Positions 1 through 4,692 of a stretch of 4,692 nucleotides of DNA are shown here, in pieces. Position 1 is the first letter of the stretch. Each line of letters opens with the position of its first letter. Made by a program: the position numbers and the translations under genes. Source of the DNA: a virus (Duplodnaviria; Heunggongvirae; Uroviricota; Caudoviricetes); the IMG/VR virus record IMGVR_UViG_2778261344_000007, positions 1 to 4,692 of that record, one strand, 5' to 3'. Under the pieces are notes generated by a model. That model was not told where the DNA came from. It ran no database searches and worked only from the letters and a program-made list of their open reading frames with translations.

Positions 1-53
1 CTTGCCCACTCGTTATATTTTTCCGCATTAATGGCTTTCTGTGTATTTAACAT
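1..53 (-). CDS. hypothetical protein, 5' end only (17 codons; gene runs off the window start)
   Basis: Minus-strand ATG at 51-53 preceded by GGAGG (plus 61-65, read as CCTCC) with a 7-nt spacer. Frame stays open to position 1 (MLNTQKAINAEKYNEWA...). Too short to name. Confidence 0.4.
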   Translation of the reverse strand, partial: MLNTQKAINAEKYNEWA

Positions 54-158
54 AAATATACCTCCAGTTAAGGATTAAATTTTATTTACAGTGCTGAACT
101 TAATTATTCAGATTTGGATTATGCTTTCTCTTCACGAAGTTCCGATTGTTAATTTGGC

Positions 159-581
159 TCACAACAGCACCTTCTGAAAATTACCCTGATAGAAAGCCAG
201 TACACGCTGCATAGCTTCGCTCTTCCGGCACTCGCTACAGATTATGTTCAGACGCCTGTCGTAGCGGCGTATTTCTCCGTCTGGTAATGACCAGATAAGA
301 TCCGGATCAACCACAACCGGTTTCTTCACCTTTGCCCTTGATAGTTTTTTGCGGGCGTTTTGCCAGTCTTTACGCGCCTGCTCAGACGGGAATAATCCGT
401 AGCCTGAATTGTAAACATCACCACTGGCGACCAGTTCTCTGGCGAGAGTGCTTATGTAATACCTTGATGCACCGGTTTTAGCCTCCAGAGCCCGTAACGT
501 CTCGCGACCGCTCAGACGTACAAGTTCAACAACCTGCCCTTTAATTTTTTCCCGCTCTTCTGGTGTAAATACTTTTGCCAT
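159..581 (-). CDS. Ren-like protein, 140 aa (N-terminal winged-helix-like region, C-terminal ECRKSEAMQRVLAFY motif)
   Basis: ORF-track frame 159..596; start placed at ATG 579-581 because GGAGG lies 5 nt upstream (plus 587-591). The C-terminus ...CSECRKSEAMQRVLAFYQG resembles my recollection of the phage lambda Ren C-terminus (...KECRQSAAMKRVLAVYG). Position distal to the replication genes matches lambda ren. Recollection not verified by search. Confidence 0.7.
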   Translation of the reverse strand: MAKVFTPEEREKIKGQVVELVRLSGRETLRALEAKTGASRYYISTLARELVASGDVYNSGYGLFPSEQARKDWQNARKKLSRAKVKKPVVVDPDLIWSLPDGEIRRYDRRLNIICSECRKSEAMQRVLAFYQGNFQKVLL

Positions 582-596
582 AGGTGCCTCCGGCAA

Positions 597-1358
597 TCAC
601 TTTTCCGACACAATACGACTGGAGGAATCGAAAATCTGTCGAACAATATCCCGGTGCTTGTTCAGCTCCCGCAGCGCGGCGCAGACTCGCTCCCACTTCT
701 GGACATGATTTTTCGCCCGACGCAGTTCGCGGTTTGCCATATGCAGCGATGGTAAAACCAGGTCATCCGCTCGCGTTTCAGTAAACGATGGCAGCGACTG
801 CACAATGTCCGCCACCGTTTCTGTTTTAATATCTTCCTGTGTTGCAGCCTCCTGTACTGGTAACGCAACACCTGTGGGCTGAGGAAAGGCCTTACCATCA
901 GTTTCCGCTACCGATGCTGCTTTCGGCTCTGCTGGTAAATTATCGCCCGGTATGCAGTAACGAAATTTACCGTTCTGGTTTACGCGAATCAGGCGTCCTT
1001 TGCTGATAGCCATTGCCAGCGTTGAAGCTACTTTGCGTGATGTGGTACCGAACAATGTAGCCAACTCATCCGCCGTTTGTGGGCCACGTTGTTCAATCGT
1101 CGCGGTTAAATCGCACTCTGAGATTTTCGCTACTGTTGCCATGGTGGTTTCTTCCGGCAGCTCTGCCGGCGCTGGCTGTTCCTGCTGAACGTTGTTATCA
1201 GCCACGCGCCAGGTGTATACGCTTTTATCAACGAAGCCAGCCTTTTTCAGTTCCCACAGCTCGTTCAGCACTTCTTCTCGACTGATATCAAGTCGCGTAG
1301 CCAGTTCTACCGACGTGGCTTTTCCCATCGCTTTCAGTGCGTCAAAAACGGTCTCCAT
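597..1358 (-). CDS. prophage protein with two winged-helix-like domains, an acidic/Pro-rich linker and a basic helical C-terminus (DUF1627-like), 253 aa
   Basis: ORF-track frame 597..1409; start placed at ATG 1356-1358 (METVFDALK...) because GGGAGG lies 8 nt upstream (plus 1367-1372), whereas the longer start at 1409 has no RBS and would overlap ydaV by 29 nt. Two HTH-like segments are readable ([30 protein letters not shown] and [32 protein letters not shown]). Family assignment is from memory. Confidence 0.75.
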
Positions 1359-1380
1359 TAAAATTTCCTCCCGGTAAAAA

Positions 1381-2127
1381 TTACTTCTCAATACCTGGCT
1401 GACCAACATTCGGGCGCCAGCTCTCCCAGTTAAAATTCACCCAGCGCCCGCCGTTCATGGTCATGCGATCCATAATCCGCTCGCCGAGCAATGTTTTCAT
1501 GGCCTCATAGTTCAGGTTTGTCAGCATCCCCACGCTGCGCATTGACGCTGTCCGGCGATCAACAATCTGGTGCAGTACCACCTGCTCGTTTTTCGTCTCG
1601 CGCTGAATACCAATTTCATCAAGAACCAGCAGATCAACTTCGCACAGTTCCCGCAAAAATTTTTCGCCTGACTGCCCGTCGTCATAGCTGGCGTGCAGGG
1701 CGCTCATAACATCAGCCACGGTAACCACAATCACTGTCTGGCCATCTTTCAGCAGGCGATTCCCGATAGCCGCCGCCAGATGGTTTTTTCCGGTACCAGG
1801 TTTTCCGCTGAACGCGAAATTTGTGCATCCGGTAACCAGTTCGTCAGCGATAGATTTCGCCTGACTCAACGCGTATCGCTGGCCGTCGTTCTGCACCTGG
1901 TAATTCGCAAACGAGCATTTGCGGTGCAACGGCTGTATGCCGGAGCGATTCAGGATTTTTTCCACCCGCAACTGACGATTCTGACGGTTGATCTCCTCAC
2001 AACGTTTCTGGCCTTCTGCAAGTTGCCACTCGCGCCACTCCGCCACCGTCCTGAATGGCGCGGTTACATGTGGCGGGGCCAGTCTGCGGATACGTTCCAG
2101 AACGCCGCCTGTCGCAATATTTTTCAT
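1381..2127 (-). CDS. ydaV: DnaC/IstB-like AAA+ ATPase, putative replicative helicase loader (lambda P analogue by position)
   Basis: 248-aa ORF with Walker [12 protein letters not shown] and Walker [10 protein letters not shown] readable in translation. ATG 2125-2127 with AGGGGG upstream; starts 6 nt after the ydaU stop. Length and context match Rac prophage YdaV as I recall it. Confidence 0.88.
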
Positions 2128-2133
2128 GGTCTG

Positions 2134-2922
2134 TTACCCCCTGAAGCCTGGCGGGATCGCACTGTCCGGAAACGAGACGGTGTTAATCTGTCGGAGCAAC
2201 GTCTCTGGCCGAACACCTTTCGGCGCGAACAAGCCCTGGTATTCATTGGCGATGCTGTGTCGAATCACCTGCTCAGGTGAAAAACCCTGCTGGCGGAATT
2301 TTTCCAGCTCCCGTATCGCCCCGTTAGCGCCCTGCTCCGTTCGAATCGGTTTTCGCAATGCCTGCCTGAACTGAACCCACTCATGCCAGAGTGTTTCCGG
2401 CAACCAGTCAGGCAGCTCGATAGCCTCCGGTTCGAATTTTTTAGACGCTCGTTTTTGGCGAGGGGGATTTAGGGGGAGATAAGTATTTATATCTTCCTCT
2501 TTCTCTTCCTCTGGTAACGCTTTTTGATCCGTTTTTGTAACGCTGGCAGCGTTACCTTTTCGTTTCAGTTCTCGTATTTTTGTTACTCTCTCGTTTGTAA
2601 CCGCCCGTTTTTTAGAGCTTTTCCCGTTATGGCGCTCAAAGTTAGGAAGCGACAACACACCATTAGTTTCGACCAGCCATCCAACCTGAATTAACGCATC
2701 AGCAAAACCAGCCATAAAAGTGATGCGATCTATTGCACTTTTTGTAACGCCGCGAGCGTTACACTCTGCGTTACCGTCTATCATTTGTTGATCCGCCCAT
2801 GCCCAGAAGCGAATGACTTTCCCTAATGCGGCATCTGGATCAATATTCAGAATCTCAGCAAGCCTGAATATTTCCGGCTTATCCGGCGTAATAACTTCGA
2901 GCTTTATCCAGTTTGAAGCCAT
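2134..2922 (-). CDS. ydaU: putative replication initiation protein, YdaU family (lambda O analogue by position)
   Basis: 262-aa ORF, ATG 2920-2922 with AGGTGA about 7 nt upstream. Two-domain layout with a charged low-complexity linker (KSSKKRAVTNERVTKIRELKRKG...EEEKEED) whose coding DNA carries the palindrome/T-tract cluster. Lies directly upstream of the DnaC-like gene. Symbol assigned by synteny and length class, not by search. Confidence 0.8.
   Translation of the reverse strand: MASNWIKLEVITPDKPEIFRLAEILNIDPDAALGKVIRFWAWADQQMIDGNAECNARGVTKSAIDRITFMAGFADALIQVGWLVETNGVLSLPNFERHNGKSSKKRAVTNERVTKIRELKRKGNAASVTKTDQKALPEEEKEEDINTYLPLNPPRQKRASKKFEPEAIELPDWLPETLWHEWVQFRQALRKPIRTEQGANGAIRELEKFRQQGFSPEQVIRHSIANEYQGLFAPKGVRPETLLRQINTVSFPDSAIPPGFRG
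2514..2622. other. candidate replication origin: cluster of GTAAC/GTTAC half-sites with T-tracts inside the ydaU linker-coding DNA
   Basis: GTAAC at 2514, 2537 and 2597, GTTAC at 2551 and 2582; T4-T6 runs at 2521, 2532, 2557, 2577, 2608 and 2619. Just upstream lie GGGGGATTTAGGGGGAG (2462-2478) and an AT-rich/polypyrimidine stretch (2479-2510). Confidence 0.35.
2536..2556. repeat. palindrome copy 1: TGTAACGC-TGGCA-GCGTTAC (inside ydaU, codons 123-130 GNAASVTK)
   Basis: Arms of 8 bp read directly; the reverse complement matches. Confidence 0.85.
2743..2763. repeat. palindrome copy 2: TGTAACGC-CGCGA-GCGTTACA (inside ydaU, codons 54-61 CNARGVTK)
   Basis: Perfect 8-bp arms, 5-bp centre, read directly. 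Confidence 0.85.
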
Positions 2923-2934
2923 TTGTTTTCACCT

Positions 2935-2955
2935 TGTAACGCTCGCAGCGTTACA
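2935..2955. repeat. palindrome copy 3: TGTAACGC-TCGCA-GCGTTACA (non-coding, ends 2 nt before the ydaU Shine-Dalgarno)
   Basis: Perfect 8-bp arms read directly; located in the 77-bp ydaT-ydaU spacer. Confidence 0.85.
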
Positions 2956-2964
2956 TTTAACTGA

Positions 2965-2986
2965 TACCGAACAAAACAGTTCGGTA
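2965..2986 (-). other. hairpin TACCGAAC-AAAACA-GTTCGGTA in the ydaT-ydaU spacer (8-bp stem, 6-nt loop, no U-tract)
   Basis: Perfect 8-bp inverted repeat read directly; lies between the ydaT stop (3000) and palindrome copy 3. Confidence 0.4.
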
Positions 2987-2999
2987 CGATTAATTTCAA

Positions 3000-3422
3000 T
3001 CAATGCACTACGACAGAATCGCTAGGAGAACCGCCGCCGCTGAAATGTGCTTTACGGTAAACGGCCTGGACTGCATCATCATGCGCATCAATTGCCGTAC
3101 TCAGTGCATCCTGTGCCGCCAGTAATGCACGGCGTTCCAGGGTATCGAAGATGCAGAGTCGGTGACGCAGCTCGCGAGGAAGAATTGCCAGAACCGCAGG
3201 GATCAGTTTCTGAATTTTTTCCCTTTGCGCATTCGTTTCACCTTTCAACCAACGATGATAGATATTCTGCTGATTGTTCCAGTCCTTGCCTGGTACCAGG
3301 GGCAATTCGCCGCCCCCCTGGCGCAGATATTCTTCAGTAATTGCGTTAGCGACCCACGCCTGCCCTTTTTCGGCTGCCAGGGCTAACAACACTGATTCGA
3401 TGTGCTCATGCTTGATTTTCAT
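3000..3422 (-). CDS. ydaT: YdaT-family protein (CII-like regulator of Rac-type prophages; historically annotated as a toxin)
   Basis: 140-aa ORF beginning MKIKHEHIESV..., which I recognise from memory as YdaT of the E. coli Rac prophage (unverified). ATG 3420-3422 overlaps the ydaS TGA 3419-3421 (ATGA coupling); GGGAG lies 7-8 nt upstream. Confidence 0.88.
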   Translation of the reverse strand: MKIKHEHIESVLLALAAEKGQAWVANAITEEYLRQGGGELPLVPGKDWNNQQNIYHRWLKGETNAQREKIQKLIPAVLAILPRELRHRLCIFDTLERRALLAAQDALSTAIDAHDDAVQAVYRKAHFSGGGSPSDSVVVH

Positions 3423-3429
3423 GAATCAA
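3412..3429. promoter_or_regulatory. perfect inverted repeat TTGATT-N6-AATCAA centred on the ydaS stop / ydaT start overlap
   Basis: TTGATT 3412-3417, ttcatg 3418-3423, AATCAA 3424-3429, read directly. A weaker relative (ACGATT-N6-AATCAA, 2986-3003) overlaps the ydaT stop. Confidence 0.4.
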
Positions 3430-3673
3430 CTCCCATCAGCTTTTTCGTAGTAGTTTTATTTCTGCCAATAGTTAAAATTGCATCGGCAGAAAATAATCCG
3501 TTTGATGCATGAGCGATTTTTTCAGCGTAATTTGTTTCGCCGGTATATTCTGTGCGAGGCAATTTACCGTTATCCATCCATTTGTAGATTGCTCTTTGGC
3601 TGACACCACAAACGTCGGCCACAACAGAAACGCGAACAGTTTTGATTACATCTTCAAGTGTTTTCTGGTTCAT
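3419..3673 (-). CDS. ydaS: Cro-like small HTH regulator (YdaS-like), 84 aa
   Basis: ORF-track frame 3419..3745; start placed at ATG 3671-3673 (MNQKTLEDV...) because GAGGGTGA lies 5 nt upstream, whereas the ATG at 3745 has no RBS and sits inside the repressor promoter. HTH-like segment VADVCGVSQRAIYKWMDNGKLP. First gene of the operon, divergent from the repressor. Symbol by synteny. Confidence 0.75.
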   Translation of the reverse strand: MNQKTLEDVIKTVRVSVVADVCGVSQRAIYKWMDNGKLPRTEYTGETNYAEKIAHASNGLFSADAILTIGRNKTTTKKLMGVDS

Positions 3674-3697
3674 ATCACCCTCACAATGTGAACTTTG

Positions 3698-3732
3698 AGT
3701 ACATGCTATAACAGAACTGACAGTACATTCAA
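3698..3732 (-). promoter_or_regulatory. candidate early-right promoter (PR-like) for the ydaS operon: -35 TTGAAT (plus 3727-3732), 16-bp spacer, extended -10 TGtTATAGC (plus 3705-3713)
   Basis: Read on the minus strand; would give a leader of about 25 nt containing the ydaS RBS. The -10 is imperfect (ends in C). Confidence 0.4.
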
Positions 3733-3753
3733 GAGCGAATATCATTGAACTTA
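3717..3753 (+). promoter_or_regulatory. candidate repressor-maintenance promoter (PRM-like): -35 CTGACA 3717-3722, 17-bp spacer, -10 TATCAT 3740-3745; predicted start at or beside the racR ATG (leaderless mRNA)
   Basis: Hexamers and spacing read directly; the -10 ends 7 nt before the ATG at 3753 and no RBS is present. Lambda cI mRNA from PRM is leaderless (established), which gives a precedent. Confidence 0.45.
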
Positions 3754-4172
3754 TGGTTCATGAAGATAAAGCGCGTAAAGAGTTCGCCAGTAGGCTTGCG
3801 CTAGCCTGTGAAAACGCTGGTTATGAACAACATGGAAGGCAGGCAGAAATTGCCCGTCGAATGAAATTAACACCAAAAGCGGTTAGCAAATGGTTTAATG
3901 GTGAAACAATTCCTCGCCGAGAGAAATTAAGGGAATTAGCAACACTCATTGGAACAACACCAACCTATCTTTTGGGAGAGGATACAGAAGAAAGTGGACA
4001 GATACGTTTCTATCAGGAGTTAAATCCAAGACAAAAAATCATCATTGACCTTCTGGACGAGCTCCCTGACAGTGAGACAGATGAACTTTTAAAAACTCTT
4101 GAGGAGAAAAAACAGAAGTACAATGCAATTTACGAAGAGTTAGCACGAAAGAAAAAACAAAAAGCCTCTTAA
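3753..4172 (+). CDS. racR: CI-like prophage repressor, XRE-family HTH with a charged helical C-terminus (RacR-like), 139 aa
   Basis: ORF with HTH segment QAEIARRMKLTPKAVSKWFNGETIPRREKLRELATLIG, divergent from the cro-like gene. No Shine-Dalgarno precedes the ATG at 3753, but a good -10 ends 7 nt upstream. Symbol is positional (racR-ydaS-ydaT-ydaU-ydaV order). My memory of K-12 RacR length differs, so this may be a variant repressor. Confidence 0.8.
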   Translation: MVHEDKARKEFASRLALACENAGYEQHGRQAEIARRMKLTPKAVSKWFNGETIPRREKLRELATLIGTTPTYLLGEDTEESGQIRFYQELNPRQKIIIDLLDELPDSETDELLKTLEEKKQKYNAIYEELARKKKQKAS

Positions 4173-4182
4173 ACCAGCATAA

Positions 4183-4220
4183 ATCCGGTAGCGTCCCCCT
4201 CCGGGTTTGTGCTTCACTTT
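4183..4220 (+). terminator. weak candidate terminator after racR: stem ATCCGG / CCGGGT (4183-4188 and 4201-4206, one G-U pair), 12-nt loop, then T-rich TTGTGCTTCACTTT
   Basis: Hairpin begins 11 nt after the racR stop. The stem is short, the loop long and the T-run interrupted, so this is weak. Confidence 0.25.
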
Positions 4221-4247
4221 ATCCCGTCTCATTTTTTTATACATAAA

Positions 4248-4291
4248 ATGTACTTAAAGTACTTTACAATGATGAACACAAAGTACATTAT
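4248..4291 (+). promoter_or_regulatory. operator/promoter cluster downstream of the repressor (OL/PL-like): inverted site 4248-4262 containing palindrome GTACTTAAAGTAC, direct site GAACACAAAGTACAT 4274-4288, candidate -35 TTTACA 4263-4268 and -10 CATTAT 4286-4291
   Basis: Motif copies read directly. Hexamers are moderate matches with a 17-bp spacer, oriented toward the small ORFs at 4464 onward. Confidence 0.4.
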
Positions 4292-4463
4292 ATACCTACC
4301 AACCCACCCCGCCCCACAGAACGCCGGGCAATACTTCGAGTTACCAGGCAGTGGTCAGGGGTTAAGTAGCCAGCCCGAGGCGTATGAACATGACGGCGGG
4401 ATTCAAATTTTGCAGTGCAGCAGTTAGTTCCGCCACCCGGCGTTAAGGGGAAATGAGGTCAAC

Positions 4464-4616
4464 ATGGATACTATCGATCTTGGCAACAACGAATCTCTGG
4501 TATGTGGCGTGTTTCCCAATCAGGACGGCACATTCACCGCCATGACGTATACCAAAAGCAAATCGTTTAAAACCGAAGCTGGCGCGCATCGCTGGTTAGC
4601 AAGAAACTCCGACTAA
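4464..4616 (+). CDS. small early-left protein, 50 aa (MDTIDLGNNESLVCGVFPNQDGTFTAMTYTKSKSFKTEAGAHRWLARNSD)
   Basis: ATG 4464-4466 with GAGG (4455-4458) 5 nt upstream; below the ORF-track size cutoff. Position corresponds to the small ydaG/ydaF genes next to racR in Rac, but I cannot say which. Confidence 0.6.
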   Translation: MDTIDLGNNESLVCGVFPNQDGTFTAMTYTKSKSFKTEAGAHRWLARNSD

Positions 4617-4627
4617 TGAGGTTGACG

Positions 4628-4692
4628 ATGGAATTTAAAGATTTACCTCCTTCAATCCAGGAGATTGCAGCACACACACTTCGTCATCGTCT
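4628..4692 (+). CDS. small protein, N-terminal 21 codons (MEFKDLPPSIQEIAAHTLRHR...), continues past the window end
   Basis: ATG 4628-4630 with GAGG (4618-4621) 6 nt upstream, starting 11 nt after the previous stop; frame open to the window end. Confidence 0.5.
   Translation, partial: MEFKDLPPSIQEIAAHTLRHR

Follow-up and report, generated by a model that had tools for sequence, protein, structure and literature searches.

The locus and its replication initiator gene

We analyzed a stretch of 4,692 nucleotides (positions 1 to 4,692 of IMG/VR virus record IMGVR_UViG_2778261344_000007), which is referred to as the window. It represents the immunity and replication region of a lambdoid E. coli prophage similar to Rac. 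The subject of this analysis is a palindrome which occurs three times at a replication initiator gene (2134-2922, minus strand), with two copies inside the coding region and one directly upstream. We consider it likely that these palindromes are the initiator-binding iterons of a replication origin which is embedded in the initiator gene itself.

The 901 bp from 2100 to 3000 show 100% sequence identity to O157:H7-type chromosomes, and at least 80% of this 901-bp query was found in 679 of 5,426 complete E. coli genomes. The initiator gene occupies the position of ydaU and is apparently read through from upstream. It is directly followed by ydaV (1381-2127, minus strand), which codes for a DnaC/IstB-like AAA+ helicase loader (Pfam IstB_IS21, 2e-20; Bac_DnaA, 2e-8; RefSeq annotation "ydaV: ATP-binding protein"). 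Upstream are ydaT (CII-like; 3000-3422, minus strand), ydaS (Cro-like; 3419-3673, minus strand), and the gene for a RacR/DicA-like repressor (3753-4172, plus strand).

The initiator, which is annotated in RefSeq as "hypothetical protein", is a lambda-O-like replication initiator. It has a full-length match to PHROG 2509 "replication initiation protein" (E 3e-88), and its C-terminal half, the only part with an O-like match, is similar to "replication initiation O-like" (phrog_678) and to primosomal families. The protein has a predicted N-terminal winged-helix domain (approximately aa 1-120, from fold prediction), a linker, and a YdaU/lambda-O-like C-terminal domain (approximately aa 139-262); the AlphaFold2 model has a pLDDT of 72.6. 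YdaV is presumably the partner of the C-terminal domain. Functional relatives include phage TL-2011b and the vB_EcoS-673R7 phages, the latter coding for a protein with 99% sequence identity to the initiator.

The earlier note on this DNA had named the gene ydaU. This is adequate for its position and for the C-terminal third of the protein but not for the N-terminal domain, which is not DUF1376. The C-terminal 124 aa show 79% sequence identity to YdaU of the K-12 type, and only the last ~290 bp of the gene are shared with K-12 ydaU. The initiator is thus a mosaic of a different N-terminal domain and a YdaU-type C-terminal domain. No Pfam family was assigned to the initiator at E <= 0.01, and none to 14 homologues at E <= 1. 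For the N-terminal domain, there was no NCBIfam match and no sequence homology to lambda O (Pfam Phage_rep_O). Pfam also revealed no DUF1376 at the N-terminus and no sequence support for membership in the Rep_3/RepA family, and a profile search against PDB sequences returned nothing. Structural neighbors from viruses, as retrieved by Foldseek, include "replisome organizer" and DUF1376 proteins, the latter with weak matches (E 0.05-0.3). Because the hhalign comparison to the N-terminal domain of K-12 YdaU was negative (probability 0.2%), these weak Foldseek matches are all that points to homology between the initiator and DUF1376 proteins.

Palindromes and half-sites in the window

A search for the motif GTAACGC-N5-GCGTTAC (TGTAACGC-N5-GCGTTACA) with up to two mismatches resulted in exactly three matches in the window: 2536-2556 (site B), 2743-2763 (site A), and 2935-2955 (site C). 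None of 200 dinucleotide-preserving shuffles contained a match, and the chance expectation is zero. The three copies which had been described in the earlier note, with centers 207 and 192 bp apart, were thereby recovered at their exact positions. The note had also attributed perfect 8-bp arms to all of them. This is true for sites A and C, which are perfect palindromes, site C having the sequence TGTAACGC-TCGCA-GCGTTACA. Site B has perfect 9-bp arms (GTAACGCTG/CAGCGTTAC), but the copy ends with ...GTTACC, so that the outermost base is mismatched in the 8-bp-arm form.

Site C is in the intergenic region between ydaT and the initiator gene. It begins at -32 from the initiator ATG, its near end is 11 nt upstream of that codon, and it abuts the Shine-Dalgarno sequence AGGTGA (2929-2934), which confirms its reported placement beside the ribosome-binding site. 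Site A is in the DNA for a low-confidence loop (aa 50-60) of the N-terminal domain and encodes loop residues 50-56 according to the AlphaFold2 model, while site B encodes the interdomain linker. Both sites thus occupy the DNA for the least constrained peptide. They are translated in the same frame of the initiator gene, and their peptides, C-N-A-R-G-V-T-K and G-N-A-A-S-V-T-K, agree with the previously reported pattern x-N-A-x-x-V-T-K.

Both in-gene palindromes are part of larger clusters. Cluster B (2513-2601) is in the linker DNA between the predicted N-terminal domain and the common C-terminal domain. In addition to site B, it comprises the half-site GGTAACGC at 2513-2520 (GCG TTA CC on the gene strand, translated as Ala-Leu-Pro), which is the last iteron before a purine tract, and two GTAAC/GTTAC pentamers on the upstream side of site B (2582-2586 and 2597-2601), which are weak, accessory half-sites. 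Cluster A (2743-2775) comprises site A and the half-site GCGTTACC (GGTAACGC on the gene strand) at 2768-2775. The latter is 12 bp from the left arm of site A, in the same orientation, within a 4-codon insertion (NAEC); it is probably accessory because it is variable among close relatives. Of the 18 GTAAC/GTTAC pentamers in the window, 10 are located within 2514-2954, where ~0.9 would be expected. Dyad symmetry is thus combined with multiple copies, with three full palindromes and at least four half-sites within 2513-2955.

Because the motif is a palindrome, an antisense open reading frame (2524-2694, plus strand, 56 aa) also encodes the motif peptide and reads C-N-A-G-S-V-T across it. Nothing suggests that this is a real gene, and the freeze of synonymous positions is limited to the arms. 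The hexamer TATCAT is present at 2779-2784 as had been noted, but the antisense promoter proposed on this basis found no support: a sigma-70-like site was not detected on either strand between 2400 and 3100, and the hexamer is not kept in the nearest relatives.

A further perfect palindrome (TACCGAAC-N6-GTTCGGTA, 2965-2986) is also located between ydaT and the initiator gene. It is predicted to form a stable leader hairpin, with no T-run after it on the transcribed strand, and is absent from the other upstream contexts examined.

Distribution of the motif among homologous loci

Homologous loci were collected from GTDB genomes, IMG/VR, and GenBank phages and were reduced to 61 representatives with less than 93% sequence identity in the first 140 nt of the gene. 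These have 36-67% G+C, extend down to ~47% sequence identity, and originate from Enterobacterales, Pseudomonas-like bacteria, Xanthomonadales, and Planctomycetota. At the position of site A (+148 to +172 from the ATG), a match with up to two mismatches is present in all 61 representatives. At the position of site B (+337 to +393), this is the case for 58 of the 61. Outside of these positions, the flanks of the 61 loci (1.5-3 kb per side) contain a single further match at this threshold. An equivalent of site C (-32 to -44) is restricted to eight representatives from an enterobacterial clade, the upstream sequences being otherwise unrelated. As site C is kept while the upstream DNA is unrelated, it can be assigned to the initiator module, at its 5' edge.

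Loci which have only the C-terminal domain in common (L005-L009, L018) lack any copy of the palindrome. In the reverse approach, a motif-first scan of IMG/VR, 104 of the 117 exact palindromes among the matches listed are located between -60 and +450 of a gene for this N-terminal domain. The motif is thus linked exclusively to the N-terminal domain of the initiator, whatever the upstream genes or the C-terminal domain. Polymorphism among 60 close relatives (at least 88% sequence identity) was uninformative: most changes in the arms are singletons, some are artefacts of the alignment, and the half-site at 2768-2775 differs between relatives.

This distribution bears on which protein may bind the palindromes. 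Binding by YdaT, by the Cro-like or RacR-like repressor, or by a host factor would be in line with three DNA-binding regulators being encoded within 1.2 kb. However, upstream genes and regulators differ completely among the loci which carry the motif, and the N-terminal domain is its sole constant partner. A host factor is disfavored by the host range, which extends from Enterobacterales to Planctomycetota. The operator of YdaT, TTGATT-N6-AATCAA (PMC9986795), has no relation to the palindrome, and a perfect copy of this operator is found elsewhere in the window (3412-3429). The published YdaT operator being different, and occurring at 3412-3429 and imperfectly at 2986-3003, YdaT is an unlikely binder. 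Overall, we regard binding by any of these other proteins as very unlikely. Among the candidates for a dimeric binding protein which had been listed in the earlier note, the product of the gene itself fits best, as the motif travels with its N-terminal domain; YdaT had been another candidate and is not supported.

The two YdaT operator copies are of interest by themselves. That at 3412-3429 spans the ydaS stop and the ydaT start, which is the same relative position as that of OM in CP-933P (PMC9986795). The weaker copy at 2986-3003 has two mismatches, overlaps the ydaT stop codon, and is ~30 nt upstream of site C.

Selection on the DNA rather than on the peptide

It had been proposed that the palindromes are under selection as nucleic acid, and codon usage at the sites bears this out. 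At site A, the Val codon is GTT in 61 of 61 cases (17 expected from the codon usage of the same genes), the Asn codon is AAC in 61 of 61 (42 expected), and the Ala codon is GCT in 52 of 58 (13 expected). Codons 1 and 5 change the encoded residue (G/C/S and S/G/R/T, respectively) yet retain xGT and xGC. Third-codon-position entropy, which compares positions inside and outside the palindromes within one codon alignment and on the same tree, is 0-0.1 bits in the arms versus 1.5-1.9 bits at other invariant residues (P16, G100, V113).

Reading frames provide a second line of evidence. Site B is translated as N-A-x-x-V-T in most homologues and as V-T-x-x-A-L in six others (L021, L015, L019, L016, L163, L154). 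The sequence CGTTACC encodes x-L-P in 59 of 61 representatives ("ALP" being GCG TTA CC), with TTA as the Leu codon even in genomes with 60-67% G+C. L212 and L205 have GTTAC five times in tandem at 11-12 bp, and these repeats are translated in three frames. Selection thus acts on the DNA and not on the peptide. The sites explain why this part of the initiator gene resists synonymous change.

These data bear directly on the possibility that x-N-A-x-x-V-T-K is a repeated peptide motif, with the palindrome a by-product of its encoding. Both in-gene copies of the window do give the same peptide in the same frame, and site A shows hardly any variation at N, A, V, and T. Such an explanation is already contradicted by reading frames and codon usage: synonymous positions are frozen, the nucleotides of codons 1 and 5 are fixed while their residues vary, six representatives read site B in a different frame, and tandem copies occur in three frames. 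Moreover, one copy is non-coding, and the peptides are in a low-confidence loop and a linker. We have practically discarded it.

A second possibility is that the palindromes form RNA hairpins in the operon mRNA, as already raised in the earlier note; these would act on translation of the initiator, on mRNA stability, or on processing. Any transcribed palindrome can form a hairpin, and for the 5' leader including site C, a stable fold is predicted (-30 kcal/mol, z = -4.2), with the hairpin adjoining the Shine-Dalgarno sequence. However, the predicted hairpin of site C leaves the Shine-Dalgarno sequence unpaired, and a search of the window against Rfam gave no match at E <= 1. The pattern of variation does not fit either. 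The outermost pair is G.G in 33 of 62 copies of site A and in 25 of 58 copies of site B, and C.A, C.C, or C.T is found at pair 7-13 in 22 of 58 copies of site B. No double compensatory change was found for pairs 1-7, where all variation breaks pairing on one side. Such uncompensated, one-sided changes argue against selection for an RNA or DNA hairpin and are in favor of a protein that recognizes the half-sites individually. It is sequence identity, not pairing, that is conserved across phyla, and the additional copies in many homologues are direct tandem half-sites which are unable to pair. Hairpin formation as the function of the palindromes is therefore highly improbable.

Iteron spacing and the adjacent purine tract

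The working unit is the 7-8 bp iteron GCGTTAC(C) and its complement, arranged in convergent clusters. Among the homologues, one to three copies of GTAAC are followed by one to five copies of GTTAC; loci related to the window also have one to three plus one to three copies at 11-12 or 23 bp. The predominant start-to-start spacings are 14, 11-12, and 23 bp, which is an iteron-like helical phasing. For the spacing between sites A and B (189-243 bp), no clear helical phasing was found.

Cluster B is adjoined by a candidate DNA-unwinding element (2479-2512), which consists of a 21-nt homopurine run at 2492-2512 (AGAGGAAGAGAAAGAGGAAGA, gene strand) and the A+T-rich sequence TATAAATACTTAT at 2479-2491. 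Averaged over 59 loci, the A+T content of the 40 bp after the last linker iteron exceeds that of the locus by 16-23 points, and purines account for up to 92% of the coding strand there. Most relatives have (GAGAA)4-5 as their tract, which is translated as REEKRRE; the version in the window is degenerate. The Arg codons of the tract are AGA in 67 of 67 cases, versus 4% elsewhere in the same genes. Irrespective of iteron type, almost all sub-families have the (GAGAA)4-5 tract after the linker iterons (e.g., L013, L019, L139, L212, and L337-L344, at ~+375 to +430). As this sequence is a mirror repeat, formation of a triplex (H-DNA) is conceivable.

Sub-families with other iterons and the K-12 Rac prophage

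Distant relatives of the N-terminal domain (23-48% sequence identity) have kept the layout with two convergent clusters and a purine tract, but their iterons differ. GTCCGC iterons were found in phages of the epsilon15/SPN9TCW type, in Pseudomonas phage phiPSA1, and in Ralstonia phage RPZH6. Their typical positions are +54 and +65 (forward) with +78 and +100 (reverse), and +333 and +344 (forward) with +357 and +368 (reverse). The strict forward-forward, reverse-reverse pattern (L337, L341, L344, L347-L426) is kept across phages of Salmonella, Pseudomonas, and Ralstonia. Ralstonia phage Raharianne has CGTCTAC iterons, and a Vibrio phage has GTCAC/GTGAC iterons. The repeat sequence thus co-varies with the N-terminal domain, with five iteron types among sub-families of the same layout. 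Because the position is kept while the repeat sequence tracks the DNA-binding domain, this is the classical initiator-origin signature of lambdoid phages.

ydaU from the Rac prophage of strain K-12 has its own repeats. Those of the AGATGTTCAA type are found at +142, +229, and +352 to +460 of the gene, which are places equivalent to the palindrome sites. In L005, which has a K-12-type Rac ydaU (gene 2518-3375), AGATGTTCAA occurs four times with up to one mismatch, in all cases within the gene (2659-2978), together with the inverted pair TGTTCAAACA/TGTTTGAACA. The repeats are in domain-coding and linker-coding DNA and are a candidate for the core of the Rac origin oriJ.

The mosaic structure of the initiator could also be taken to mean that the palindromes are recombination joints for module exchange, which bound the module of the N-terminal domain. 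Sites C and B do bracket that domain, mosaic joints are found there, and K-12 YdaU has the C-terminal domain in common with the initiator but a different N-terminal domain. Site A, however, is in the middle of the module. The palindromes cannot mediate exchange with K-12 ydaU, since this partner is non-homologous and devoid of the motif. Helical phasing, tandem amplification, and iterons specific for sub-families would be unexpected. We find a role as recombination joints hardly credible.

A probable replication origin inside the initiator gene

The closest known arrangement is ori-lambda, and the palindromes are therefore read as the binding sites of the initiator itself. Ori-lambda is inside gene O, which is part of the cro-cII-O-P operon, and consists of an A+T-rich region of 40 bp and four inverted iterons of 19 bp, to which O dimers bind (PMC5043065). 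As in lambda, the putative origin is within the initiator gene, at the junction of the DNA for the N-terminal DNA-binding domain and the C-terminal domain which recruits the loader; repeats with dyad symmetry are adjoined by a candidate for an easily opened tract; the genes are in the order cro-like, cII-like, initiator, and loader; and the iteron sequence changes with the N-terminal domain, as it does among the lambdoid relatives (PMC5043065).

There are also differences from lambda. The N-terminal domain of the initiator has no detectable sequence relation to Phage_rep_O, and the place of lambda P is taken by a DnaC/IstB-like loader. The repeats are built from 7-8 bp half-sites, which form convergent clusters. 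One cluster is inside the DNA for the binding domain itself, with the extra upstream copy in the enterobacterial clade. The adjacent tract is a homopurine repeat of the (GAGAA)n type.

Iteron plasmids (pPS10 RepA, F RepE, R6K pi, RK2 TrfA) have direct repeats of 17-22 bp outside the rep gene. The repeats in the initiator gene are shorter, mostly convergent, and embedded in coding sequence, and, in contrast to the autoregulation of iteron-plasmid Rep proteins, where the rep promoter is overlapped by an inverted iteron repeat, no promoter was detected at site C. An origin within its own initiator gene is also found in Bacillus phage SPP1, where oriL is within gene 38, coding for G38P. Replisome organizer and DUF1376 proteins resemble the initiator as Foldseek neighbors, the DUF1376 matches being weak, and K-12 Rac ydaU (DUF1376) has its own repeat family at equivalent positions; its N-terminal domain is, however, devoid of sequence or profile similarity to that of the initiator.

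From sequence comparison, we infer initiator binding, DNA unwinding, origin activity, and any autoregulation. Cluster B together with the purine/A+T-rich tract would be the origin core, with cluster A as a second binding locus at a distance of ~200 bp. A third, clade-specific site would be site C, which may serve for autoregulation, too. The initiator would be made from the transcript of the ydaS-ydaT-initiator-ydaV operon. Its N-terminal domains would then occupy the iterons of clusters B and A and, in the enterobacterial clade, also site C, each palindrome being recognized as a pair of convergent half-sites by the winged-helix domain. The spacing of 11-12 bp would place the bound proteins on one face of the helix. 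The assembled complex would distort the DNA and open the adjacent homopurine, A+T-rich tract (2479-2512), upon which the C-terminal domain would recruit the DnaC-like loader YdaV and the host DnaB helicase. As site C is a full inverted repeat at the ribosome-binding site, the initiator may also limit its own expression, similar to Rep dimers at plasmid operators.

Several points weigh against an initiator-embedded origin. For this initiator family, neither an experiment nor a published origin mapping was found in the literature searched. The architecture deviates from that of lambda, as two or three sites at distances of ~200 bp take the place of four neighboring iterons of 19 bp. With ~35 bp, the tract proposed for unwinding is short, and it is purine-biased more than simply A+T-rich. 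The role of site C may differ from that of sites A and B because it is clade-specific. The 61 representatives are phylogenetically related, and many are from one Pseudomonas-like clade, for which the within-alignment entropy control is a partial remedy. Also, the apparent invariance of the arms is inflated because at most two mismatches were allowed upon site detection.

The main rival is that the palindromes are operators only, used for autorepression or as a transcriptional roadblock by the initiator or another regulator, while the origin is elsewhere. Dimeric repressors typically have perfect inverted repeats as their sites, site C is directly at the ribosome-binding site, and plasmid Rep proteins autorepress at inverted half-iterons (PMC5043065). 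Against a purely regulatory role, no sigma-70-like promoter was detected near any site, and the two universal sites are deep in the coding region, while the copy at the 5' end is dispensable and clade-specific. Helically phased tandem half-sites and a conserved A+T-rich/purine tract are features of origins, not of operators. Furthermore, K-12 Rac ydaU has the same layout, and Rac is reported to hold the active origin oriJ. We thus consider it unlikely that the sites are operators only.

The origin interpretation, the iteron nature of the palindromes, the additional half-sites, and the homopurine/A+T-rich tract go beyond the earlier note. In the literature on the motif, the purine tract, oriJ, and the replication regions of Stx phages, no description of these sites was found. 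While the principle of an initiator-embedded origin is textbook knowledge, the literature searched contained no account of the initiator family, its iteron, the split design with two clusters inside the DNA for the binding domain, or the near-universal (GAGAA)n tract. As a broader and more tentative proposal, for which we see less than an even chance, a large superfamily of phage initiators which crosses phyla may share a single, undescribed origin design: two convergent iteron clusters in the DNA for a surface loop and a linker, followed by the homopurine mirror repeat (GAGAA)4-5 as an opening or strand-capture element. The repeat would act via H-DNA or via single-strand recognition by the initiator, similar to DnaA-trios. 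GCGTTAC would be fixed from Enterobacterales to Planctomycetota because it is binding site and coding sequence at once.

Were the palindromes indeed origin iterons, the origin would be located for a widespread class of Rac-like prophages from pathogenic E. coli, and also for hundreds of phages from Salmonella, Klebsiella, Pseudomonas, Xanthomonas, Ralstonia, and even Planctomycetota. No mapped origin was found for those phages in the literature searched. The DNA would be constrained both as coding sequence and as protein-binding site, with one element read in three frames. It would also provide a rule for predicting origins and initiator specificity from sequence: convergent half-sites in loop and linker DNA with a subsequent GAGAA tract. 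The sites may lend themselves to tools based on origin titration or incompatibility.

Distant and possibly extrachromosomal copies

One locus, a contig similar to Xanthomonas phage CP2 (L223), has an extra exact palindrome at offset -8036, which is ~8 kb upstream of its initiator gene. This could be a chance occurrence or a second binding locus.

A search among plasmids yielded only two phage-like records, which are too few to argue for autonomous replication. One locus from a replicon designated as a "plasmid" is L346 (NC_015459.1 from Pusillimonas sp. T7-7, 41,205 bp, circular; replicon rep_cluster_1580 in PLSDB). It is a phage-like genome which codes for CII, NinB, Rha, the initiator, and an ATP-binding loader, and the palindrome is present. 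It may be an extrachromosomal phage which replicates from the initiator module.

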